Shown piece by piece: positions 8,253 through 63,610 of a stretch of DNA of 64,000 nt. Below the pieces are notes generated by a model. The model was not told the DNA's origin, ran no database searches, and saw only the letters and a program-made list of their open reading frames with translations. The position numbers and the translations under genes are program-made. Each line of letters opens with the position of its first letter. Within the stretch, counting starts at the first letter, position 1. This stretch comes from a virus (Duplodnaviria; Heunggongvirae; Uroviricota; Caudoviricetes): the IMG/VR virus record IMGVR_UViG_3300000976_000008, positions 47,223 to 111,222 of that record. One strand, given 5' to 3'.

Positions 8253-9230
8253 TTACGGTTGGGAATCGGTGACGGCTTTCAAATCCGAATCAACCATCAT
8301 CCCAACTAGATCCTTGAAAGTGACCCGTGGCTCCCACCCTAAACCTTCTTTGGCCTTTGATGGATCTCCACAAAGCAGATTAACTTCAGCTGGCCTCATG
8401 AATCTTTCATCAGTCACAACAAATTCTTCAGGATCAAGATCAACTCTGGAAAATGCTTCTTGAACAAAATCAGCGACACTGTGAGTTTCACCGGTTGCGA
8501 TCACATAGTCTACTGGTTTATCTTGTTGGAGCATCATCCACATGGCACGAACATAGTCGCCAGCGAATCCCCAATCCCTCTTTGAACCTTGGTAACCAAG
8601 AGCCAGAGAATCTTGAAGCCCCATTTTAATCCTAGCAACAGCATTTGTGATTTTTCGAGTCACAAATTCTAAACCGCGTCTAGGACTCTCATGGTTGAAC
8701 AAGATTCCAGAAACACAAAACATTCCGTGACTCTCTCGATAATTCACCGTCATCCAATGACCATAAAGCTTGGCAACACCATAAGGGCTTCGAGGGTAGA
8801 ATTTAGTGCTCTCCTTCTGAGGAGTTTCTTGCACTTTCCCATACATCTCGCTAGAGCTTGCTTGGTAAAACTTGATCTTATCATTCACCTGCCGAACAGC
8901 TTCAAGTAACCTGGTTACTCCCAATCCAGTCATATCAGAAGTCGATACCGGATGATCCCAACTCGCATGCACAAATGATTGTGCTGCCAGATTATAAACT
9001 TCATCTGGCTCGACATTTTCAACCAATCTCGTCAATGAACCTTGATCAGTAATATCAGATTGGTGGAGAGTTATGAAATCAGAAATATGGTCGATCCTCT
9101 GAGTGTTCGAAGAGCTTGACCTTCGAGTCACACCATGGACTTCATAACCTTTCTCTAATAAGAACTCAGCAAGATAACTGCCATCCTGACCAGTACAACC
9201 GGTTATAAGAGCTTTACGTTGAAGTGTCAT
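8253..9230 (-). CDS. gmd: GDP-mannose 4,6-dehydratase
   Basis: [27 protein letters not shown]...RRSS..NT.RIDH is the canonical GMD N-terminus. The rest aligns along the full length to short-chain dehydratases. Confidence 0.9.
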
Positions 9231-10008
9231 TCACTTTTTCCGATTGCTTGCAATGATCACCCCATTTATAATCATATTGAGATGAAATTTTCACGTTTGA
9301 AGAAATCCAGTTCAAAAAGTTTGGAGCAGATTTGCCGCAAATTCTCATTCTATTATTAGAAGGAGTTATTCTTGATTCAAATCCCAAGTCCCTCAATTTG
9401 ACCACTAAAACCTCTTGTGACTTGAAAGATTCAGTACAGAGTTGAAGTCCATAATCAACTTGATAACCATCACCAACAAACCACCAATATGCAGACAAAG
9501 GCGTTATTCTAACATCATTCGGAATAATCTTTTCGCCTTTAGAATCAACATACCATCTTTCTTTTTGTTTTTTCAAATCCAAGCAAAAAGAAGATTTAAA
9601 ATGCCAATAACCATTTTTAGATCTCCACGGATTTGAAAAATGAACTTGTTCAAAACATAATTCTATATCTTGCAAAGTTTCCAAATATTTGCAACCATAT
9701 GTCAAACGTGCAGACACAGAAGATCCATCCAAATGACCATCGCCAAGCATTATACCATCTAATATCTCTAATTGTCTTTCTTCTAAATTAGCTATCTTAG
9801 ATTCGTGAAGCACGTTAGCTTCTGACAAAGATCTTGTTGGTATATTATACTTACTAAAATGATTCTCTATAGTAGTGATATGAACTTGAAGTTTGGTTGC
9901 AATTTGTTGTTGCGATAACAAATCAACCCAGTACAAATCATGTAAATGAGAAACATACTGAGCTAAACTTAATCCAAGTTTTTTGTATGTTGGTTGCCAA
10001 GAACCCAT
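9214..10008 (-). CDS. LAGLIDADG homing endonuclease (double-motif, free-standing)
   Basis: There are two LAGLIDADG-type motifs, [11 protein letters not shown] and WWFVGDGY. Its 3' end overlaps the gmd start by 17 nt. Confidence 0.8.
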
Positions 10009-12300: not shown

Positions 12301-12599
12301 TAAAAAAGATATCGCGTGTCACGACACCATTTCTCCAATCAATCCCTAAACAGATTGAAAGGTTTGACGCTTATATATACGCAGTGGTGGATAGAAAATC
12401 AGGAAATCAATTCCCCGATCAAGAGTATGGCACAAAAGCGATTATAGAACCATGCACTTTCGATTGGGACCACATGTCAATTCATATGACAATGATGGAG
12501 AAAGTGAACTATGGGATTAAGAGTTTTGATGACCTAGACCCACAATTCTTCGAAGCAATCGAAGCAGCTTTCTTATCGCTAATGTACAGCAGCCTTTAG
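12294..12599 (+). CDS. Hypothetical protein (opposite-strand island)
   Basis: 101-aa plus-strand ORF. Confidence 0.25.
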   Translation: MAIKKISRVTTPFLQSIPKQIERFDAYIYAVVDRKSGNQFPDQEYGTKAIIEPCTFDWDHMSIHMTMMEKVNYGIKSFDDLDPQFFEAIEAAFLSLMYSSL

Positions 12600-13429
12600 G
12601 TTATCGAAGAAAATAATAAAGAATAATCTTCGCTGGCCAAAGTAATTGACACATTGGGCAATGAATCAAAAGTTCTTGTAGCCCAATCATTAGGCCCAGG
12701 ATGATGTCTAATTGTCGCAATCGCTACAAAATTTACATTAGTACCATCATAAGTAGCTTGAAAATGGACACCATTCACAGTTCCGTTATGTGCAAGCCCA
12801 GGACCACCTGGCCCGTCAGTAGAAGCTCCAACAAGATAGAGATCCTTAGGCACACCCGTTTCCAAAGAAACCCCTTGGCCATATAAAGTACCAACAACTG
12901 AAGAATCTTCAGATAAGTGGAATGCAGAAGTTGCAATCCCAAATCCTGTGGCTGATGAATTACTAACAGTAATCAATTGTCTGTTAGCAACAGAATCCAA
13001 ATTGATTACTGTTGCAGTAACACCAGGGCCTTGGAAAGCAGCACCAGGCCAAATCTTGTCGATGAAAACAGTAATCTCAGAAGAATACAAAGAATCGAAA
13101 TGTTCCCATGAGCCGTTTCCATTGACTATTAAGATACCATCATCATCTCTGAAGGCAGAGAATTCATAAGTCTCTTCACCCTCAGTATATCGGCATGACA
13201 TTCTAGGAATAATTCGGCGAATCTCTAAACCAGAACCCGGTAGGTTAGGGATAGTAATTGTCGCTCCAATATCAGCGAATAGAGCAATAAATGCTGGGAT
13301 GCTATCATTATGAGCATCCATATCCTGATTATTCACCTCAAACTTGATGTCGTCAAGAGCGAGTGATGATTTAACTTCACTACCATCGATGTACGAAATC
13401 ACTGTTGATAGATTGAAAACATATGCCAT
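12596..13429 (-). CDS. Hypothetical protein
   Basis: 277-aa ORF rich in Gly and Thr. Confidence 0.4.
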   Translation of the reverse strand: MAYVFNLSTVISYIDGSEVKSSLALDDIKFEVNNQDMDAHNDSIPAFIALFADIGATITIPNLPGSGLEIRRIIPRMSCRYTEGEETYEFSAFRDDDGILIVNGNGSWEHFDSLYSSEITVFIDKIWPGAAFQGPGVTATVINLDSVANRQLITVSNSSATGFGIATSAFHLSEDSSVVGTLYGQGVSLETGVPKDLYLVGASTDGPGGPGLAHNGTVNGVHFQATYDGTNVNFVAIATIRHHPGPNDWATRTFDSLPNVSITLASEDYSLLFSSIT

Positions 13430-14374: not shown

Positions 14375-14848
14375 TCAATTGACAAATCTTGCCGTGCAGT
14401 GCCATCCCGATCCAGATGGATGGCATGCCTTAGCAATCATTCGCTTCTGCCCATAGTAGCAGACATTTCTCAGTGCATCGGCTGCAGATCTCGTCGAAAA
14501 ACCAACACCTTCGAATTGACCAGGTGGTGGAGATCCAATGTGGCCAGTTCGTCGATTCATAGCTTGAATTCGTGCTGATTCATGCACCGAAACCGTAGAT
14601 GTTGTTCGAGTCGTCACAGTATGTCGCACATGTCGCACATGTCGCACATGTCGCTGTTGACGAACTTGACGAAACTGACGGCATTGTGGCTGTCGAACTT
14701 GACGAAACTGCGGCTGACGAAAACGTGGCTGTCGGAATTGGCGTGTTTGACACGGATTACACATACCGCGTTGCCCGCCTCTTCGACCAGCTTCTACCTC
14801 AACACTCATACAACAGAGTACCAAAGCAATCATCAAAACAAAACGCAT
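14375..14848 (-). CDS. Secreted Arg/Gln-rich tandem-repeat protein
   Basis: Signal peptide MRFVLMIALVLCCMSVEVEA, then FRQPRFRQPQFRQVRQPQCRQFRQVRQQRHVRHVRHVRH. The underlying DNA carries tandem repeats gtcgcacat x3 and ttgacgaa-type units. Confidence 0.4.
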   Translation of the reverse strand: MRFVLMIALVLCCMSVEVEAGRRGGQRGMCNPCQTRQFRQPRFRQPQFRQVRQPQCRQFRQVRQQRHVRHVRHVRHTVTTRTTSTVSVHESARIQAMNRRTGHIGSPPPGQFEGVGFSTRSAADALRNVCYYGQKRMIAKACHPSGSGWHCTARFVN

Positions 14849-20085: not shown

Positions 20086-20700
20086 TTATTCTTCGAGAGG
20101 CACGTTCCAGTACATCTCGCTAACAAACTTCTCCCAAGAATCCAACGCAATACCTGAATGGAAAGTTGGTCTCCATTTAGGTCGAATTGGCTCTTTCCTC
20201 AATCTCATTCCGCTCTCTTTGAGAGTTTTTGCAGCTTTGCGATGATTACACTTAATGCACGCAGCGGCACAATTATCCCAAGAAGTAAGACCACCACGTG
20301 ATCGTGGCAGAATATGGTCAATCGTCAAATTGCGAAGACCAGGCTTGATCCCACAATACTGACAAGTTTCTTCATCTCTCTGAAACAAATTCCGTCTACT
20401 AAACGAAAGCGTAGTCTGAGGGAATTTGCTGTAATTAGCCAGTGTAATGACTTCAGGAACACGAAGTTTGAAACCGACACATTGAATGAATAATTCATCC
20501 TCATCGGGCTTCAATTTGGACCAATCATCCCATGCATACTGGCAATAATCATTAGGATCAACAACTTTCGCGTTGTCTGCCCATACTTTCTTCAAAGCGT
20601 CGGCAACTGGAGCTACATCAATAGCCTGCCAGTTCTTGTTCAGGATCAAAGTCGGCCTAGTAAGTGTTGCAGTCATCATTACCTCCATAGTCGAAATCAT
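20086..20700 (-). CDS. HNH homing endonuclease
   Basis: CQYCG...LTIDHILPRSRGG...WDNCAAACIKCNHRK is an HNH core. It sits next to tRNA-Leu. Confidence 0.8.
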   Translation of the reverse strand: MISTMEVMMTATLTRPTLILNKNWQAIDVAPVADALKKVWADNAKVVDPNDYCQYAWDDWSKLKPDEDELFIQCVGFKLRVPEVITLANYSKFPQTTLSFSRRNLFQRDEETCQYCGIKPGLRNLTIDHILPRSRGGLTSWDNCAAACIKCNHRKAAKTLKESGMRLRKEPIRPKWRPTFHSGIALDSWEKFVSEMYWNVPLEE

Positions 20701-20715
20701 CCACTTTAGATTCGA

Positions 20716-21360
20716 CTAAACACTCTCTTTCCAGCAATTGATCCAAGTAATGAGACGCCAATAAAGACGCCAATCACTGATTTTTAATTGAAATCTTCCA
20801 TTCTGACATCTCCCAGACCATTCAATTTTGGATCTGATGTCAGTATTCTCACGCATAGAGATGCTAACATATGGTAACAAATCTTGCCAAAATTTTTTGC
20901 ACTTCACAGGATTGTGATTGCGATAAAATATCACATCCGCTTTCAAATTCTTGATAGTCATTGTTCTCAGTTGATCACAAACTTTTAAAACCAATTGATG
21001 ATCATTATTTGTGATACCAACAACACCTGTGCCTATCTCGCTACTGCCAGAAGCCTTATTCCCTTCACCCCAATAGATTCCCAAGAATCCCATAAAAACA
21101 GGATCAGATTTTAACTCATCCCATCTCGCCCTAGCATCGGCACACACATCTTGAATCCGATTTTCCCAGATTTCTTTAGCTTTTTTGGAACCTGGTAAAT
21201 TGTTGGTTTTCCTAGTATTATTCGTAGTTCCTTTGCAGTGATAAGAAACACTAGATTTAGAACAATTAAGTTCTTTAGCTATTTCTCTAACACTCATCCC
21301 ATTTGCCCGCAATTCTTTAATTCGAGCATTTCTATCTTTGTTCTTTTTCCATTCAGCCAT
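20716..21360 (-). CDS. HTH-domain protein with a possible single LAGLIDADG-like motif
   Basis: The N-terminal HTH is MSVREIAKELNCSKSSVSYH. MGFLGIYWGEGN resembles one LAGLIDADG motif. Confidence 0.35.
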   Translation of the reverse strand: MAEWKKNKDRNARIKELRANGMSVREIAKELNCSKSSVSYHCKGTTNNTRKTNNLPGSKKAKEIWENRIQDVCADARARWDELKSDPVFMGFLGIYWGEGNKASGSSEIGTGVVGITNNDHQLVLKVCDQLRTMTIKNLKADVIFYRNHNPVKCKKFWQDLLPYVSISMRENTDIRSKIEWSGRCQNGRFQLKISDWRLYWRLITWINCWKESV

Positions 21361-21792: not shown

Positions 21793-21820
21793 ATGGAACC
21801 GACGGGATTCGAACCCGCCC
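21793..21820 (-). pseudogene. tRNA 3'-half remnant (T-arm plus 3' acceptor strand)
   Basis: The minus strand reads GGGGCGGGTTCGAATCCCGTCGGTTCCA. No complementary 5' acceptor sequence lies upstream. Confidence 0.3.
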
Positions 21821-23373: not shown

Positions 23374-23448
23374 TGGCAGGTGTGAGAATCGAACTCACAG
23401 GGGGAATATCTTCCAAACGGCTCATGAGACCGTCCCTACCAGCCTGCC
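23374..23448 (-). ncRNA. Atypical tRNA-like RNA with a CAU anticodon hairpin, no recognisable D-arm and an extra GGAA-GATA-TTCC hairpin
   Basis: Acceptor GGCAGGC/ACCTGCC, hairpin ACGGT-CTCATGA-GCCGT, T-arm GTGAG-TTCGATT-CTCAC. Confidence 0.4.
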
Positions 23449-23727
23449 TTATTTCACCTTCAACTTGATCAGGACCTTGTCAATGACTTCATTGAATGTT
23501 TCAGGATTACCAATCTCAACAGAGCCAAGATCAATCTTCTTCACATTCGCAACATCATGGTCAACAGATTCATAAAGAGTAGTCTGCAAACGATCATTTT
23601 GCACTGAAAAACAAACTGCATTTCTCCCACCGGAGATAGCAAGCTTATCACCATCAATCCTACAAATGAAGCCATTATCGCAAAAATCAGCTTCAATTGC
23701 GTGAAGTGTATCTGTTGTAACTGTCAT
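23449..23727 (-). CDS. Hypothetical protein
   Basis: 92-aa ORF. Confidence 0.3.
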   Translation of the reverse strand: MTVTTDTLHAIEADFCDNGFICRIDGDKLAISGGRNAVCFSVQNDRLQTTLYESVDHDVANVKKIDLGSVEIGNPETFNEVIDKVLIKLKVK

Positions 23728-26525: not shown

Positions 26526-26818
26526 TTAACTTTTCAAATTATCAAGGATCAGTGCGATACTGAGTTTTTCTGTATCGCTTCCAGCATCTATTACAACGCC
26601 AAAATTGTCTTTCGAGAATACCCCAAGGATCTAATTGCGATTTTGATCTCGATGGTCTGTAAACTCTGACCATAATCTCGTCAAAATACTGAATCGAATT
26701 CCCTTGGTTCGCTCTTCGTTCTTGTTGTACACGCATAGTAGCACCTTTCAGTTAATTGATAACTAAAAGACGCACCTTCTGCTTTTCATCAAGATCTCCT
26801 GATTAATAGTCATTCGGG

Positions 26819-26940
26819 CGGGACTCGAACCCGCATCAAATGGTGGATTCGAACCACCTTTCCAGCCTTCCGGCCAGCTTGGAACCCAGCCCAAGCCCCG
26901 GCCTTCGCCAGGGGAGTCTCCCAATTCCTCAACCAAACAA
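26819..26940 (-). ncRNA. GC-rich structured element with two consecutive T-arm-like hairpins (tRNA-derived or novel RNA)
   Basis: The minus strand contains GGTGG-TTCGAAT-CCACC followed by GCGGG-TTCGAGT-CCCGC. Neither hairpin has a matching 5' acceptor strand. Local GC is far above the genome background. Confidence 0.35.
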
Positions 26941-26945
26941 CTAAA

Positions 26946-27110: not shown

Positions 27111-27296
27111 TTACATTCTTGCGAGACCGTATCCGATTATAAACGCTGCCATTGAATTGTAAATCGCTAAATTACCATTCTGTGGCCATGATACTGAGAA
27201 AGTGAGCATCCCAGCACCAATTAATAACGCAATAACTGCGGCATAATTGGCTCTTTTTGGAGTTTGCTCTTGTTCTGTTTTTTCTTCAGTCATCAT
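27111..27296 (-). CDS. Small membrane protein
   Basis: 61-aa ORF with one hydrophobic helix. Confidence 0.3.
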   Translation of the reverse strand: MMTEEKTEQEQTPKRANYAAVIALLIGAGMLTFSVSWPQNGNLAIYNSMAAFIIGYGLARM

Positions 27297-27306
27297 TAAC
27301 CTTTGT

Positions 27307-27459
27307 TTGGATAGCGGTGCGGAATCGAACCGCAGTCTCTAGTCATCGGCAGGCAATGTCCTCAGAGTTAGCTAACATCCCTAACCTCGTAGTGTTCTTT
27401 CCAGTTGAACTACCGCATGAGCTGACGGAGTGACTTCGAAGCCACTATCCTGATCATCA
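27307..27459 (-). ncRNA. tRNA-like stable RNA of about 153 nt with a 9-bp terminal helix, a canonical T-arm and a large internal insertion
   Basis: 5' GGATAGTGG pairs with 3' CCGCTATCC, just after TGCGG-TTCGATT-CCGCA. An internal hairpin AGTTC-AACTGGAAA-GAACT looks like a D-arm. Confidence 0.4.
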
Positions 27460-27525
27460 ATCTCGTCCTGATGTGTCACCAATCCGAAATTTCACAGTGT
27501 TTTGCCTTAAACTACCGCCCTTAAG

Positions 27526-27597: not shown

Positions 27598-27736
27598 CTA
27601 ATTTATCTCTTTTTGATTCTTTCTGAAGGGTTAGCAGACCGGGGTTTCACCGGCATCTTTCTGATCTTCAACGAGGGGTTTGCAATCCCCAATTTCACAA
27701 ACTGTTTTAATTAAACTACCGCTTTCGCCTTCGAAG

Positions 27737-27851
27737 ATGTGCGGGACGGATTTGAACCGGCGACCTCCTGGTCATGGGAAGTTCATTTTCCACCATCTTA
27801 GTTTCCAAATTCTCCCTCATCAAGTGCTCTGCCTGACTGAGCTACCGCACA
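27737..27851 (-). tRNA. tRNA gene with an insertion of about 41 nt in the anticodon-arm region (intron-like or disrupted)
   Basis: Acceptor TGTGCGG/CCGCACA, D-arm GCTC-AGTCAGGCA-GAGC, variable AGGTC and T-arm GCCGG-TTCAAAT-CCGTC are all canonical. However, 64 nt sit between the D-arm and the variable loop where about 18 are expected. The T-arm is almost identical to that of the adjacent tRNA-Phe. Confidence 0.5.
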
Positions 27852-40757: not shown

Positions 40758-41404
40758 TATCTTCTAACCTCAGAATACAAAGGGCTAAAAACGTTTGCAT
40801 CAGGATCATGATACATCCGAAATTTGCTTGGTTTAATAAGCAAATCGCCTTCATAAGAACCAGTACCCCTTTCGATGTACTCTAGAGATCTTTCATCAAT
40901 TATTTCAATTTTCAAAACTTCTTGAGTACGAATCAACTTCCCAAAAATATCTTGAATCATGCCCGGACCAACGAATTTATTCAGTGAAACCTGAACATCT
41001 ACAAGAAAAAGACCTTCATCGTCGATACCAAAAAAGAATTGGGCTTGCTCTACACCAATCAAGCTCACTGATTTGAACAATTTAAGAGCATCATCACTCT
41101 TCAAAAAATCAGAAGCTAAATCAGCAAGAGGCGATTTGGCCATCAGATCAATTGAATTACCAGACCAATCACCACATATGACAGCAGCTTGATCTTTTTT
41201 GGGTTCTCTATACAAAAGCAACGATAACCCATTATCACCAGGATGCTTCAATATGTAAGAAAACAGATCCTTTGCATTTCTTACATCTAGAAGCTTTGGG
41301 TATTCAAGCAAACTCGGCAGTTCAGAATTTCTAATTGGTACATCAGATATACCAGACTGCTGAGGGGGGATTTTGGTTTTGTCTTTGAATCGCGAATGTA
41401 CCAT
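40757..41404 (-). CDS. Hypothetical protein
   Basis: 215-aa ORF. Confidence 0.35.
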   Translation of the reverse strand: MVHSRFKDKTKIPPQQSGISDVPIRNSELPSLLEYPKLLDVRNAKDLFSYILKHPGDNGLSLLLYREPKKDQAAVICGDWSGNSIDLMAKSPLADLASDFLKSDDALKLFKSVSLIGVEQAQFFFGIDDEGLFLVDVQVSLNKFVGPGMIQDIFGKLIRTQEVLKIEIIDERSLEYIERGTGSYEGDLLIKPSKFRMYHDPDANVFSPLYSEVRR

Positions 41405-46081: not shown

Positions 46082-47236
46082 TTAATCTTCGTCTTCAAGT
46101 TGCTCAAGCAGCGAAGCAATCTCGTCGGATTCTCCTTCGTCATCATCGCCAGATTCTTCGGCTAACTTCTCAGCGTCAGTTTTACCAGCTTCTTCTGCTT
46201 CTGGCTCTTCTTCAAGAGGAGTTTCATCTGCTAGAGAATCTCCTTCATCATCGGCAGCTGCTTTCTCAAGCTGATCTACCACATCGACGTCATCGTCTTC
46301 TTCAGCTTCGGTTTCTGCCTTCTTCTTTTCTTCAGCCTTCTTCTTTGCAGCTTTAGCCTTTGCTTCAGCCTTAGCTTCAGCTTTAGCCTTCTTCTCAGCA
46401 TCATCCTTCGTAGCAGTTTCATCCTCGTCGAAACCACCACTTTCATCTTCATCATCGCCATCGACCATCACACTGAAGAGTTTCTTAACCTTCACTGGGT
46501 CTGGCGTTTCGAGTTTGCTCCATAGATTGTGACGAAGCTTGAGAAGAGCAGAAAGTGCTTTCTTATTTGCAGCACCTTCGGAATCCTTCACCATTGGTTG
46601 ACCTTCGCCCCCATTAGCCAAGAATTTACTGGTCTTGTAACTGTTTTGTCTGCCTTGGCGGGAAACTTCCAGTTGGAACAAGAATCCATTATTCTCATCG
46701 AAGAAGACACCGTGTGCTTCTGGCTCTTCCGGATCTCCAGCATCTTCACGAAGAAGAGCAGCGGTCCACTTGTCAAAACAAGTCTTTGGTGCGTTATACC
46801 ATTTGACCTTACCTCGCAATTCTTCTGGATTTCCCTTCCAATTAGTGAAGTAGATGTTGGTAGCATAATACGTAGTCGGCATCCATGTTCGAATGATCTT
46901 GCTACGCACATCTTGGTCGCTTTTGTTCTCCTTCAAGAGATCAAAGCCAAATTGGCAAATTGGACATTCTTCACCATTCCACACGCGGGGACATGGGTGA
47001 GGTCTATCGTTTACCCAGTGGTTAGCGTGAGCGATGAAGAACTGATCCATGTCCTTCTCTACTTCACCACTCTTGAGAATATCACCATTCATCAAAGGCG
47101 GAAGAACAAAGAATCGATACTTGATTTCTTTATTGTCGTCTTTAGCCTTCGCTGGTTTGAACTCATCTGGGTCAGTGAATTTACCAGATTGTGATTGTTT
47201 CAGTTTCTTGCGAATTGCTTCTACATCGTAAGCCAT
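46082..47236 (-). CDS. gp32-type single-stranded DNA-binding protein (SSB)
   Basis: YRFFVLPP...FFIAHANHW...PCPRVWNGEECPICQ matches T4 gp32 RFLP...NHGF plus Cys-x-Cys-xx-Cys zinc ligands. KVKWYNAPKTCFDKW matches KVFKYRFGKKIWDKI. The C-terminal tail is long and acidic. Confidence 0.9.
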   Translation of the reverse strand: MAYDVEAIRKKLKQSQSGKFTDPDEFKPAKAKDDNKEIKYRFFVLPPLMNGDILKSGEVEKDMDQFFIAHANHWVNDRPHPCPRVWNGEECPICQFGFDLLKENKSDQDVRSKIIRTWMPTTYYATNIYFTNWKGNPEELRGKVKWYNAPKTCFDKWTAALLREDAGDPEEPEAHGVFFDENNGFLFQLEVSRQGRQNSYKTSKFLANGGEGQPMVKDSEGAANKKALSALLKLRHNLWSKLETPDPVKVKKLFSVMVDGDDEDESGGFDEDETATKDDAEKKAKAEAKAEAKAKAAKKKAEEKKKAETEAEEDDDVDVVDQLEKAAADDEGDSLADETPLEEEPEAEEAGKTDAEKLAEESGDDDEGESDEIASLLEQLEDED

Positions 47237-60698: not shown

Positions 60699-60891
60699 GA
60701 CGATCAGCATAATCACTTGCAAGAGCTGCAAGATGTGGATTAGTAAAGACTCTTTCCGGTTCCAACGAGTCTGCATCCAAGATTGTTTTGGCGATTTCGC
60801 CTGTGGGCACGACATCACGCATCATCAAATAGAGGAAAGTTACTAGCTTACTTTTGCTCTTTATGTCGTTCTTTGTGGAGGAGTTTGACAA
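60673..60891 (-). CDS. Hypothetical small protein
   Basis: 72-aa ORF. Confidence 0.25.
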   Translation of the reverse strand: MSNSSTKNDIKSKSKLVTFLYLMMRDVVPTGEIAKTILDADSLEPERVFTNPHLAALASDYADRLIDEVDEV

Positions 60892-63610
60892 TTGTTTGAT
60901 TCCTTCTCATCGTAAAAGTGCCTCTCATCTCATCATAATCAACCCACATCTCAATCCCTGTACCAACTAATAGAGATTCAGGATTTTGCAAAGCTAATTC
61001 ATTGTTGAAAATGAGAACTAAGGCTGTTTGAACACCGTCACTAACAAATAACCTAGCATACTCTTTGTTATTCTTAGATACGGCGAATTCTAAATCAGTG
61101 ATCACAACTTCAAGTTTAACTCCGTCATACTGACCACCACGCTTCGCAGCATCAATATCACAATTACCCTGTGTGAGATAAAGATCAAGTGGTGAATGCA
61201 AATAGTAACCAAGATATTGCTTCTCAAAAGCCAGAGTCTCTTCTAAAGTGAATTCTTTGTCAGAGTAAAGACTGATCACATTATCTCTACTGTCATTTGG
61301 TTTTGGCTTCCAATTCTTGATCTTCGCAGGGATTTTGCGGCGATTTGGATATTGCTTCTTATACTCTGCCTCTTGCCGCTGCCTCTCCTCTTCAATTGTT
61401 GTTTCGTTCCAACCATCTTTTTCAACCAGTTTGGCCCTGATTTCTCTTCGAAGTTGAGTTATATCCTTGCCACTACAGTATTTATATTCATACCATTTCC
61501 AAGTCGCATAAATGTTCTCATGTCCTTCAAGAACAGTGAATGCACCAAGTTTGATAAACCTTTCAAGAACGGTTTTGCTCTTACCGCCCTTCTTTTCAAT
61601 AAAATCATCAATATCAGTAAAATCGCCACGCCCAGCAAAACTTTCGGCTGCACTTTCACCAATTCCTTTAATGCCGATCATCCCCTGATTCACAACATCA
61701 TTTGTAACAGTAAAGTCTGTCGTCAAATTGAAAATGTTGATAGTTCCAAAGACAACTGTATCAGCTGGCTTTTCAGGATTGTAAGATCCACTATATGTAA
61801 CATGATCAGTCGGTTTCCATTCTTCAGATCTAGCAATGCCCATATATCTTACTAGTTTATCCGAATGACAATCGCTCATGACAGCGGCCCACCACTCTGG
61901 AGCAAAGTGAGCTTTCAACCATAAACATCTCTGAGCAACTAAGCAATAAGAAACAGCGTGAGAACGATTGAACGCATAGCGACCAAATGTTTCCATCTTG
62001 GTCCACCAGTTCTCTGATTCTTTCTGTCCTAAAACTCTAGATGCACCAACAATCCAATGCTCTCTAATGGGTTTCAACTTATGAACCCATTTCTTAGCAA
62101 CAGCTTTCCTAGCCTCTTGTGCTTGTGGTGCGGTAAAACCAGCTACTCGTTGCCAAATTGCCTGCAATTGTTCCTGATAGACAATTACACCATAGGTATC
62201 CTTCAAAACATCCAATATCTTAGGATGTAATCGATTCTTCCAAGAATCCGATCCACCATCACGATTCTCTACAGCTTCCGGTATAGAAGCCATCGGTCCT
62301 GGGTGCCCCATAGCATTGAAAAGCATCAAATCTTCAAAGTTTCTAACCCCATTCGCCAAAATGCTCTTCGCCAGATCAGTATCAAATTGGAAAATACCAT
62401 CTGTTTTCTGTTCATTAGCAAGACGTAATGCATCTTCATCATTGAGACTAATATAATGCTTGTTGCCCTCTGAATCGAAAAAATGACCAGCCCTATTCAA
62501 ATTAGGATTAATATCGTCCCATCCAGTCATAGCTGGTGGTAGTTCCTGACCGTGTTCAGATTCAGATTCTTTTCTCTCACCAAACGTGATACCTCTATTT
62601 TGCTCAATAAGCCTGCAACACTCGAAGATATATTTAAGCGTTTTGAGGCCAAGAATATCCCACTTAATATAACCAAATTTTGAAAGCTGAGTGTTCCTAC
62701 CCTCGGACCACATGCTTACCCAATAACCTTTGTTGTTACTCTTGGCTAAAGGAATATTTCCGAACAAAGTACGATCAGCGATAATGAGGGCACCAGCGTG
62801 CATACCCATGTTTCGCACTCGACCAATGATCTGAACAGCATAATCTATAACATCTGGATATTTAGCAGTAAACGAGGCAAGTTGCTCATATTCAGCTATC
62901 AGCTTACCGATAGTCGGGCCATCTGTAGCTTCTGATTGACAATTTGGACATCTGACTTCATTGTGAGAAGTACCACATTCTTTATCTTCGCCATCGGTTT
63001 TGATGCGACCTTTACAATTTGAATAACCACCATCTTTCAAATCATCAACATCATCCGGCAATTTAGTTGTAAGCTCATAGGCTTCAGCCTTATCAACCAT
63101 ACCAGTGGCAACACAAACATCGATCACAGATGATTTGAATTTATATGTCTGCCACGTTCCGACAGAACAAACAGGCCCATACCCATCAGTTATGCCCATC
63201 CCATACTTCTCAGCAGCATAGGTTTTAATTGGGTCGCGAGCTTCAGGAAGACAGTCGAGATCAATATCCGGCATATCCGGATCTTTTACAAAGTCTGGCG
63301 GAACAACTCCGTTCCTTTCTCGATATTTAACAACTTCAGCAGCTTTGACAGTACAAAGAATCTCATCATCTCTACCACTAATCGGGTCACCTTCGGCCAT
63401 ACCAAGCAACCAAGGCAAGACCAAACTATTGGGATTTGATCCAAATCGCTTCTTATCGTTGTAGAGATTCAGCCAATATGTAGTAGCACCTTGCTTCTCG
63501 ATCTCCTTAAATTCAAACTTCAAGCGTTTTGCGTAAGTTTCATCTAAAGATCGACCGTCAAGCTCACCATTAGCAAGCTCTTTTAATTCTTCCCAAGTGA
63601 CGCTAGCCAT
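60848..63610 (-). CDS. DnaE-family (Pol III alpha-type, C-family) DNA polymerase catalytic core lacking the N-terminal PHP domain
   Basis: Aligned to E. coli DnaE: [25 protein letters not shown] ~ [38 protein letters not shown] ~ [26 protein letters not shown] ~ PDFDVDFC (catalytic Asp pair); [10 protein letters not shown] ~ [20 protein letters not shown] ~ Gx[20 protein letters not shown] ~ KMDFLGLRTLT. The ORF begins at the equivalent of about DnaE residue 290. Confidence 0.8.
   Translation of the reverse strand: [920 protein letters not shown]

Follow-up and report, generated by a model that had tools for sequence, protein, structure and literature searches.

Extra small stable RNAs in the transfer RNA (tRNA) clusters of phages, such as RNA C and RNA D of bacteriophage T4, have been known for 50 years. 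Structured modules carried on a tRNA body are likewise familiar from engineered tRNA scaffolds, from the tRNA-microRNA chimeras of murine herpesvirus 68 (MHV68) and from archaeal pre-tRNA-Trp introns with a box C/D kink-turn (K-turn) RNA. In the T4 tRNA cluster, rnaC (species 1) and rnaD (species 2) measure 139 and 119 nucleotides (nt), respectively, and both carry the annotation 'small, stable RNA' in the T4 record. The fold of rnaC comprises a short terminal helix, long internal hairpins and a canonical T-arm, CCGGG-UUCGAAU-CCCGG, directly before the 3' strand of that helix. The roles of both RNAs are still unknown (PMC3014915). Here we compare with them a locus in the tRNA array of an uncultured huge phage (IMG/VR record IMGVR_UViG_3300000976_000008, Caudoviricetes), of which a stretch of 64,000 nt (positions 47,223 to 111,222 of the record; hereafter the window) was analysed. 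A preliminary description had flagged nucleotides 27307-27459 of the window as a lone 153-nt tRNA-like RNA with one large internal insertion. The flagged feature is real, and its boundaries and its singularity had been misjudged: it consists of a tRNA-derived unit, c3, plus about 30 nt of its neighbour, c2, and c3 is the last of four paralogous units. We put at about one in two the probability that these units are non-decoding, tRNA-scaffolded stable RNAs excised by tRNA maturation, with the tRNA body acting as a scaffold and a kinked arm as the working part. The evidence base is the sequence analysis of a single genome.

A tRNA array with four paralogous units

All 14 tRNA genes that ARAGORN and Rfam recognise in the window lie on the minus strand, and the flagged RNA is therefore read on that strand. 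Additional tRNA pieces in the island came to light when T-arm hairpins were sought beyond the called tRNAs and a repeat finder was applied. Four tandem units, d, c1, c2 and c3, align end to end, and their sequences identify them as paralogues (Table 1). The array runs in the order tRNA-Phe, 4 nt, d, 12 nt, c1, 33 nt, tRNA-Ala, 3 nt, c2, 2 nt, c3, 14 nt and the ATG of a 61-amino-acid (aa) open reading frame (ORF), so that the units occupy tRNA slots with tRNA-like tight spacing. Promoter- or terminator-like sites are not enriched inside the array. None of the 14 tRNAs of the window encodes its CCA end, and the units likewise lack it. The location in a tRNA island and the tRNA-derived character that had been proposed for the flagged RNA are borne out.

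Each unit begins with an acceptor 5' strand ending in GCGG, followed by UA, a D-stem of 4 base pairs (bp) with its loop, an A and a stem of 3-4 bp. This stem leads into N-GA, a variable hairpin and (G/C)A(U/A)-GA-N before its 3' strand returns, and the unit closes with 4-6 nt, a 5-bp T-type hairpin and CCGC, CUGC or CCGU. The D-arm, the T-type arm and the inner acceptor pairs are kept in all four units, and the degree to which the remaining tRNA features persist varies. Unit d alone has a full 7-bp acceptor (UGUGCGG/CCGCACA), along with canonical D- and T-loops. In c3, the acceptor 5' strand CAUGCGG and UA are followed by the D-arm, a 3-bp stem top, a GA/GA motif with its hairpin, the variable region AGAC, the T-arm and CCGCUAU; its own acceptor, CAUGCGG/CCGCUAU, pairs at four of seven positions (GCGG/CCGC). 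Unit c2 has a closing helix GGCGG/CCGUC, a D-arm GUUU-AAGGCA-AAAC and a T-type hairpin GUGGC-UUCGAA-GUCAC with a loop of 6 nt, and in c1, whose D-loop lacks GG and whose T-loop reads UGAAACC, both elbow partners are gone. The conserved loop residues (GG in the D-loop, UUCRANY in the T-loop) are accordingly present in c3 and d, partly present in c2 and absent from c1.

How does this layout relate to the RNA that was flagged? The terminal helix of 9 bp exists on the minus strand, but it is not perfect, since its position 7 is a U·G pair. The canonical T-arm directly beside it and the D-arm-like hairpin within the framed stretch are both present as described, the latter with equivalents of G18 and G19. 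The RNA framed by the helix measures 142 nt (27309..27450), so that the proposed extent of 153 nt overshoots by 9 nt at the 5' end and by 2 nt at the 3' end. The 5' strand of the helix, GGAUAGUGG, covers the last stem base of c2, its variable region GAUA and the first 4 nt of its T-type stem; about 30 nt of the supposed insertion are the 3' end of c2 (variable region, T-type hairpin and acceptor 3' strand). The insertion that truly belongs to c3 lies in its anticodon arm, where a hairpin region of 46 nt comprises about 43 inserted nt and the GA motifs. When the 286 nt upstream were dinucleotide-shuffled 20,000 times, 1.4% of the shuffles yielded a helix of 9 bp or more stacked on the c3 T-arm (p ~0.014); this is suggestive, not compelling, and the minimum free energy (MFE) of the 142-mer is unremarkable against shuffles (z = -0.46). 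An independent Logan assembly (L052, a 155-kb contig) is identical at 20,360 of 20,360 bases, so that the sequence is not an assembly artefact; being identical, the second assembly offers no variation to compare.

Longer closing helices are available to both c1 and c3, the units in which they stand where acceptor tops have decayed. The outer helix of c1 uses its direct flanks (GAAGG/CCUUC, 27732..27728 and 27629..27625), and that of c3 draws on a strand 31 nt upstream. Constrained folds over 27524..27305 gave -56.4 kcal/mol for the 9-bp helix with the c3 arms, -53.1 kcal/mol for two side-by-side cloverleaf-like units and -52.8 kcal/mol for a nested arrangement (outer GGAUA/UAUCC, the c2 hairpin, inner GCGG/CCGC), compared with -61.5 kcal/mol for the unconstrained minimum. 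These models, which compete within about 3.5 kcal/mol, are too close for thermodynamics to choose between the 9-bp helix and tandem cloverleaves. Because the top three acceptor pairs of c3 are lost and its 3' strand matches the upstream segment, the mature form may be the 142-nt RNA (27450..27309), at the cost of the c2 T-type hairpin, or else a c2-c3 dimer; the 142-nt form is a plausible product on these structural grounds.

It is also conceivable that c3 is a processing signal (a 't-element') directing a tRNA-nuclease cut just upstream of the 61-aa ORF, which encodes a two-helix membrane protein and has an AAAGG ribosome-binding site, so as to make or protect the 5' end of its mRNA. The 3' strand of the c3 helix stops 12 nt short of the ATG and a few nt short of AAAGG, and t-elements of tRNA-like form are reported to set the ends of mRNAs in the mitochondria of plants (PMC1920247). 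After d, c1 and c2, however, comes another unit or a tRNA rather than an ORF, and the conserved remodelling of the anticodon arm would be left unexplained. We regard this use of c3 as distinctly unlikely.

Is the common fold real? Because MAFFT puts the 3' strands of the variable hairpins in the wrong place, the core alignment was made by hand, with sequences of equal length, structurally equivalent segments in fixed columns, N padding and hairpin interiors omitted, and it is gapless. In this alignment, which was made to fit the model and holds four sequences from one genome, 91.1% of the cells hold a standard pair, compared with 74.0% after shuffling (none of 500 shuffles reached the observed value) and with 36-57% when partners are slid by 1-3 columns, and 12 of the 23 pairs have changed on both sides. 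Pairing reaches 95-100% in the D-stem, both helices flanking the GA/GA motif and the T-stem; it is 75% in the acceptor, where positions 1-3 pair in d alone. The 5' halves of c1, c2 and c3 are 74-83% identical to one another, above any canonical tRNA, and their T-stems are all different and all paired, a combination that argues for a structure being maintained. The argument is less clear for d, whose 3' half shares 82% identity with the adjacent tRNA-Phe. A purely structural descriptor picks out the four units one after another and gives three other matches in the window; in about 1 Mb of fetched loci, searched on both strands, it gives 11 matches, at a background of ~0.01-0.02 per kb. None of these 3 and 11 further matches has a T-loop or a tRNA context.

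Table 1. Positions of the units, their parts and other features of the window (motifs as GA strand / bulge strand)
Feature	Position	Strand	Remarks
Unit d	27851..27738	minus	114 nt; motif CUUG-AU-GA-GGGAG / CUUCC-CAU-GA-C-CAGG
Unit c1	core 27725..27631	minus	95 nt; 27732..27625 with outer helix GAAGG/CCUUC; motif UUUG-U-GA-AAU / GUU-GAA-GA-U-CAGA
Unit c2	27521..27422	minus	100 nt; motif CUG-U-GA-AAUUUCG / CGAGAUU-GAU-GA-U-CAG
Unit c3	27419..27311	minus	109 nt; tRNA-derived core of the flagged RNA; motif CUA-C-GA-GGU / GCC-GAU-GA-C-UAG
9-bp helix, 5' strand	27450..27442	minus	GGATAGTGG / GGAUAGUGG
9-bp helix, 3' strand	27317..27309	minus	CCGCTATCC / CCGCUAUCC; c3 acceptor 3' strand plus 2 nt
c3 D-arm	27410..27394	minus	GTTC-AACTGGAAA-GAAC (RNA form GUUC-AACUGGAAA-GAAC)
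c3 remodelled anticodon arm	27392..27339	minus	GA/GA motif, bulge GAU, C·C pair, ~12-bp hairpin
c3 T-arm	27334..27318	minus	UGCGG-UUCGAUU-CCGCA, canonical T-loop; abuts helix 3' strand
61-aa ORF	27296..27111		downstream of c3
Element b	26808-26945	minus	138-nt structured RNA candidate
Element b, tandem perfect T-arms	26842-26858, 26818-26834		the latter abuts the 3' strand of the terminal helix
Uncalled tRNA-like gene	23375-23449	minus	75 nt
Lone canonical T-arm	21795-21818	minus	GCGGG-UUCGAAU-CCCGU plus acceptor-like 3' strand
T-arm-like hairpin	41066-41082	minus	AATTG-TTCAAAT-CAGTG, 4 of 5 pairs
Homing-endonuclease-like genes	20086-21360, 9214-10008		HNH, HTH/resolvase-like, LAGLIDADG
Tandem repeats	14621-14743 (plus-strand coordinates)		ATGTCGCAC, 9 nt, 4 copies
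DnaE-like polymerase gene	60848-63610	minus

The remodelled anticodon arm

In all four units, a hairpin of 25-47 nt separates the old anticodon from the 5' strand of its stem. A strict K-turn template, with stem-N-GA-stem on one strand and stem-NNN-GA-N-stem on the other, fits c1, c2 and c3 at the homologous position, and fits d with one extra nucleotide. The units show apposed GA dinucleotides in the tandem G·A positions, a 3-nt bulge and flanking helices that are 100% paired with double changes; the template by itself is not rare, as it finds one extra match within the four units. The core of a C box, GAUGA, occurs in c2 (UGAUGA) and c3 (CGAUGA), where the bulge is GAU. The 31·39 pair is non-Watson-Crick throughout (U·U, U·U, C·C and, in d, U·C), and non-canonical 3b·3n pairs of such kinds are common in K-turns. 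From inspection of the same arm, a hammerhead ribozyme was considered and rejected: although c1 and c2 contain GAAA...UGANGA, they have U in place of C3, GAAA is missing from c3 and d, and a single hairpin lies between the motifs.

Where might this motif have come from? The 3-nt bulge is the former anticodon (GAA, GAU, GAU and CAU in c1, c2, c3 and d, respectively), and the second GA corresponds to positions 37-38. In pattern searches, the segment UUGAAGAUCAG proved to be U33-GAA-G37-A38 plus the 3' stem of tRNA-Phe genes of other phages. From CAUGA on, the 3' half of d, which is also like the phage's own tRNA-Phe, matches the 3' halves of annotated jumbo-phage tRNA-Met genes (that of CcrColossus reads UUUGG-CU-CAU-AA-CCAAA-AGGUC), and we therefore place the origin of the motif in a tRNA anticodon loop. 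All four units have G at the equivalent of position 37, and c3 and d have C at that of position 33; the residues in the Met, Ile and Phe tRNAs of the phage itself are A37 and U33. As far as their sequences tell, the units have lost the features of decoders. Changes that are bad for a decoder are yet needed by a K-turn (G1b, A2b and a non-canonical 3b·3n pair), which favours a remodelled, kinked arm over a vestigial loop; the kinked geometry itself would follow if the GA/GA motif folds as its template predicts.

An intron would be another account of a hairpin next to an anticodon, and an intron-containing tRNA was among the options raised at the outset. Splicing would then yield tRNA-Phe(GAA) from c1, tRNA-Ile(GAU) from c2 and c3 and tRNA-Met(CAU) from d, and the 3' sides of the inserts do resemble an anticodon loop with its stem (UU-GAA-GA-UCAGA, UU-GAU-GA-UCAGG, CC-GAU-GA-CUAG and CC-CAU-GA-CCAGG). 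No excision, however, restores a 5-bp stem with a 7-nt loop, because the stem has 3-4 pairs and its 31·39 position is mismatched in every unit. The inserts are far below the size of group I introns, match no Rfam intron and, on inspection, contain no (3-4-3) bulge-helix-bulge; G37, C33 and the unpaired acceptor tops of three units would burden the spliced products, and canonical Phe, Ile and Met tRNAs are already in the island. ARAGORN makes a call over d when introns are permitted, but that call is Thr(GGU), and the calls of this mode are inconsistent and include chimeras across other genes. Rejected among these were a 'tRNA-Ser' with a 522-nt intron over two tRNAs and an ORF and a 'tRNA-Leu' composed of the 5' half of c2 and the 3' half of c3. 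We consider it very unlikely that the units are spliced.

How might non-decoding, tRNA-scaffolded RNAs of this kind have arisen and operate? We envision a scenario whereby a tRNA gene gained a hairpin 5' of its anticodon together with an A37-to-G change and then multiplied. The units would be transcribed together with the tRNAs in the polycistronic array, and host tRNA-processing enzymes would recognise their acceptor, T-arm and elbow, with RNase P cutting at the 5' end, trimming at the 3' end and CCA addition. The products would persist as stable RNAs of ~95-142 nt that are unable to read codons. Function would then reside in the kinked arm, most likely as a module that binds protein or changes shape. 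Paralogy, a conserved fold, a remodelled anticodon arm and the loss of decoding features are shown; joint transcription, processing, stability, the kink and any binding partner are what the model would add to them.

Several observations weigh against this scenario. All covariation comes from four paralogues that were hand-aligned to the model, the variation of the D- and T-stems may partly stem from different parent tRNAs, and the likeness of d to tRNA-Phe adds to this concern. With z-scores of -0.46 to -0.76, the MFEs of the units do not stand out from those of shuffles. The degenerate T-loops of c1 and c2, the degenerate D-loop of c1 and the unpaired acceptor positions 1-3 in three of the four units look like decay. 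The bulge and GA strand are a modified anticodon loop, and this descent could have produced the K-turn pattern by coincidence. A scan of ~50 ORFs showed no L7Ae-type or other K-turn-binding protein, no Ro (TROVE) protein and no RNA ligase or repair protein. Antisense complementarity of the variable hairpins to transcripts of the window equals that of shuffles and points to no targets, and a homologue outside the phage's own genome was absent from every collection searched (phage, IMG/VR, metagenome and genome).

Much of this would be expected if the units were decaying pseudogenes, that is, a Met/Ile-like tRNA that was hit by a hairpin insertion, duplicated and left to drift, with the 9-bp helix and the GA/GA motif arising by accident. 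The lost acceptor pairs of c1, c2 and c3, the missing D-loop GG and T-loop UUC of c1, the 6-nt T-loop of c2, C33 in c3 and d, G37 throughout, the near-zero z-scores and the lack of relatives in the collections searched all fit such a history, as does an island crowded with homing endonucleases and hence prone to recombination. Drift does not readily account for four helices that remain 95-100% paired despite ~30% divergence, with both-side changes in 12 of 23 pairs, or for both GA dinucleotides and the 3-nt bulge being kept in all four units while the flanking stems differ. Nor does it explain the exact, tRNA-like spacing of a compact array, or why c1 and c3 gained longer closing helices just where the acceptor top was lost. 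We regard pseudogenes as a serious rival, less than likely but well within reach.

Host phage, related islands and other tRNA-like elements

The phage is only partly T4-like. It encodes a T4-like tail-sheath stabiliser (gp15-like), a UvsX-like recombinase and a DnaB-type helicase, whereas its replicative polymerase is DnaE (Pol III alpha)-like and not of the T4 gp43 type; the best match of this polymerase, at 28% identity, is in a 595-kb uncultured phage. A 607-aa neighbour protein, which is an orphan, and a DenV-like protein are found together on one 408,349-bp contig of the Joint Genome Institute (JGI). No CCA-adding enzyme is encoded among the ~50 ORFs scanned. Homing-endonuclease-like genes are dense in and around the island; a related island (L043) is likewise rich in them, and segB in the T4 tRNA cluster provides a parallel. 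The 9-nt tandem repeats listed in Table 1, accompanied by related repeats of 15-24 nt, lie inside an ORF beside tRNA-Met.

Searches for relatives of the units yielded none. With megablast and blastn, c2-c3 is unmatched among 50,697 phage genomes even at E <= 1, and exact and degenerate patterns retrieved only chance matches, ordinary tRNAs and tmRNA ends from IMG/VR, JGI metagenomes and GTDB genomes. Homologues of an SbcD-like exonuclease encoded nearby, 50-73% identical, reveal a large clade of related phages, and no tRNA islands were seen beside them in the neighbourhoods examined. DenV homologues led to two related islands, L043 (11 tRNAs plus HNH genes) and L044; neither contains members of the family.

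The L044 island (contig ena:ERZ27315649:k141_32486, with a DenV 64% identical) does contain, at 12469-12627 on the plus strand, a 159-nt unit in an intergenic gap of 420 nt. Its acceptor is 7 bp long (GGGUCUC/GAGGCCC), its T-arm is canonical, and its anticodon arm is replaced by a branched domain of ~100 nt; the unit has z = -1.69, matches no Rfam family and is unrelated to c3 in sequence. This unit suggests that RNAs built from an acceptor, a T-arm and a big insert recur in this phage group. Beside the DenV gene of a related phage (L044/L045, 10846-10922, plus strand), ARAGORN calls a tRNA with anticodon CTA, labelled Pyl, which is possibly an amber suppressor and would then hint at stop-codon recoding in that lineage. 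Odd tRNA-like genes that are not called as tRNAs also turned up in IMG/VR contigs (L012, 8669-8757, minus; L025, 8947-9027, plus; L033, 3998-4078, minus): the acceptor helix of one, from a 371-kb phage, measures 11 bp, and another, present in two contigs, has 12 nt (CUUGAUGAUCAG) replacing the 17-nt anticodon arm.

The window itself holds further elements of this sort. Element b, between tRNA-Pro and a 64-aa ORF, has a 10-bp terminal helix (AGUUGUUUGG/CCGAAUGACU), four hairpins and an MFE of -59.4 kcal/mol (z = -2.24; the MFE structure makes up 16% of the ensemble). The uncalled gene at 23375-23449 pairs at six of seven acceptor positions and has its D-stem replaced by an 8-nt linker, UGGUAGGG; it has a good anticodon arm, ACGGU-CUCAUGA-GCCGU (CAU), its 18-nt variable arm contains a GGAA/UUCC hairpin, and its T-arm is canonical. 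Standard finders may thus be missing a non-canonical tRNA of the Met/Ile2 type. The lone T-arm at 21795-21818 lacks a 5' partner. It directly follows the stop codon that terminates an 86-aa ORF, with the next ATG shortly after it, and represents either a 3' fragment of a tRNA or a hairpin signal. The hairpin at 41066-41082 has a perfect 7-bp 'acceptor' partner 134 nt upstream, inside a 215-aa ORF, and this frame is probably due to chance, showing how easily such frames arise.

From the units and these elements one might derive a bolder proposal, which is tentative and in our view rather doubtful: a new class of phage RNA, in which host-processed tRNA bodies with a K-turn arm serve as protein-binding modules, accompanied by a broader tRNA-scaffolded family. 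Such RNAs might titrate or recruit a host or phage factor, or act as decoys for tRNA-directed defence nucleases. The broader family, overlooked in large phages, would join the diverging copies described here with element b, the 159-nt unit of L044 and T4 RNA C.

Comparison with known RNAs

As had been suggested, the flagged RNA is not an ordinary tRNA: only the 14 tRNAs score above Rfam gathering thresholds in the window, no unit matches RF00005 even at E <= 10, and ARAGORN in default mode calls none of them. The units nevertheless resemble a canonical tRNA in having U8, A9, A14, a 4-bp D-stem, a variable region of 4-6 nt, a 5-bp T-stem with (in c3) a UUCGAUU loop, no encoded CCA and a position in the array. 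They depart from it in the middle, where a stem top of 3-4 bp is followed by the GA/GA internal loop and a long hairpin without any 7-nt anticodon loop, and in the acceptor, of which c3 pairs 4/7 and only d 7/7.

A small mimic related to tmRNA or to Y RNA (YrlA) might be invoked, given that an acceptor and T-arm framing an expanded 'anticodon' domain is the tmRNA topology and that YrlA gives weak Rfam matches in the island (35.7 and 32.4 bits). The ARAGORN search for tmRNA is negative, however, and the sole Rfam signal, confined to the T-arm, scores 10.8 bits where the gathering threshold is 84. G3·U70 is absent, the third pair being A3-U70 in the 9-bp helix and U·U in the stem of c3 itself, and neither a pseudoknot nor a tag ORF with a degradation tag at its end is present. 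The YrlA (RF02553) matches, of 35.7, 32.4 and 17 bits against a gathering threshold of 69, fall on tandem tRNA junctions (Phe/d and Pro/Asn) and off the candidate. We take the YrlA and tmRNA signals to be artefacts that tandem tRNAs or T-arms produce. Membership of either family is effectively refuted.

What the locus can teach depends on expression. If the units are expressed and processed, they would provide a handle on what tRNA-derived RNAs do and would show that a class of phage RNA systematically escapes the standard tRNA finders, and a K-turn arm on a tRNA scaffold is a structural idea that can be tested. If they are not expressed, they would be well-documented structured tRNA pseudogenes and a caution against taking long-range helices in tandem tRNA arrays for single RNAs.

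With the tRNA-scaffolded precedents the units would share a tRNA body used for processing or stability and a foreign structured module at the anticodon region, and the archaeal pre-tRNA-Trp case also joins a tRNA with K-turn elements. Those precedents are eukaryotic, viral, archaeal or artificial, and, unlike them, the payload here is short and has no recognisable excision signal, target or partner. Kink-turns of the box C/D type, of U4 small nuclear RNA and of Kt-7 have the same strand pattern, stem-N-GA-stem opposite stem-NNN-GA-N-stem, as the units; the motif of the latter differs in deriving from an anticodon loop, in occurring in a bacterial-type phage without an evident partner of the L7Ae family and, in d, in having an extra nucleotide. 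Full-text literature searches returned no natural tRNA-like RNA with a K-turn in its anticodon stem.

The closest counterpart remains T4 RNA C, and the analogy to T4 species 1 and 2 drawn in the preliminary description is structurally apt. Like rnaC, the flagged RNA lies on the tRNA strand of a phage tRNA array, has its T-arm beside the 3' strand of a terminal helix, is of similar size (142 versus 139 nt), is not called as a tRNA and belongs to no Rfam family. In contrast, rnaC lacks a D-arm and a GA/GA motif at the corresponding place, is not multi-copy and folds far better than its shuffles (z = -4.6, compared with -0.46 for c3); it is element b, which likewise has neither D-arm nor GA/GA motif, whose architecture comes closest to rnaC. 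T4 RNA C and D are moreover observed stable species, whereas the units are predictions. In sequence, the units share with rnaC and rnaD only generic T-arm matches, and the likeness to RNA C is therefore architectural, not homologous. By analogy, the units would be counterparts of T4 RNA C and D in a huge phage unrelated to T4, and ones with a clear evolutionary path.

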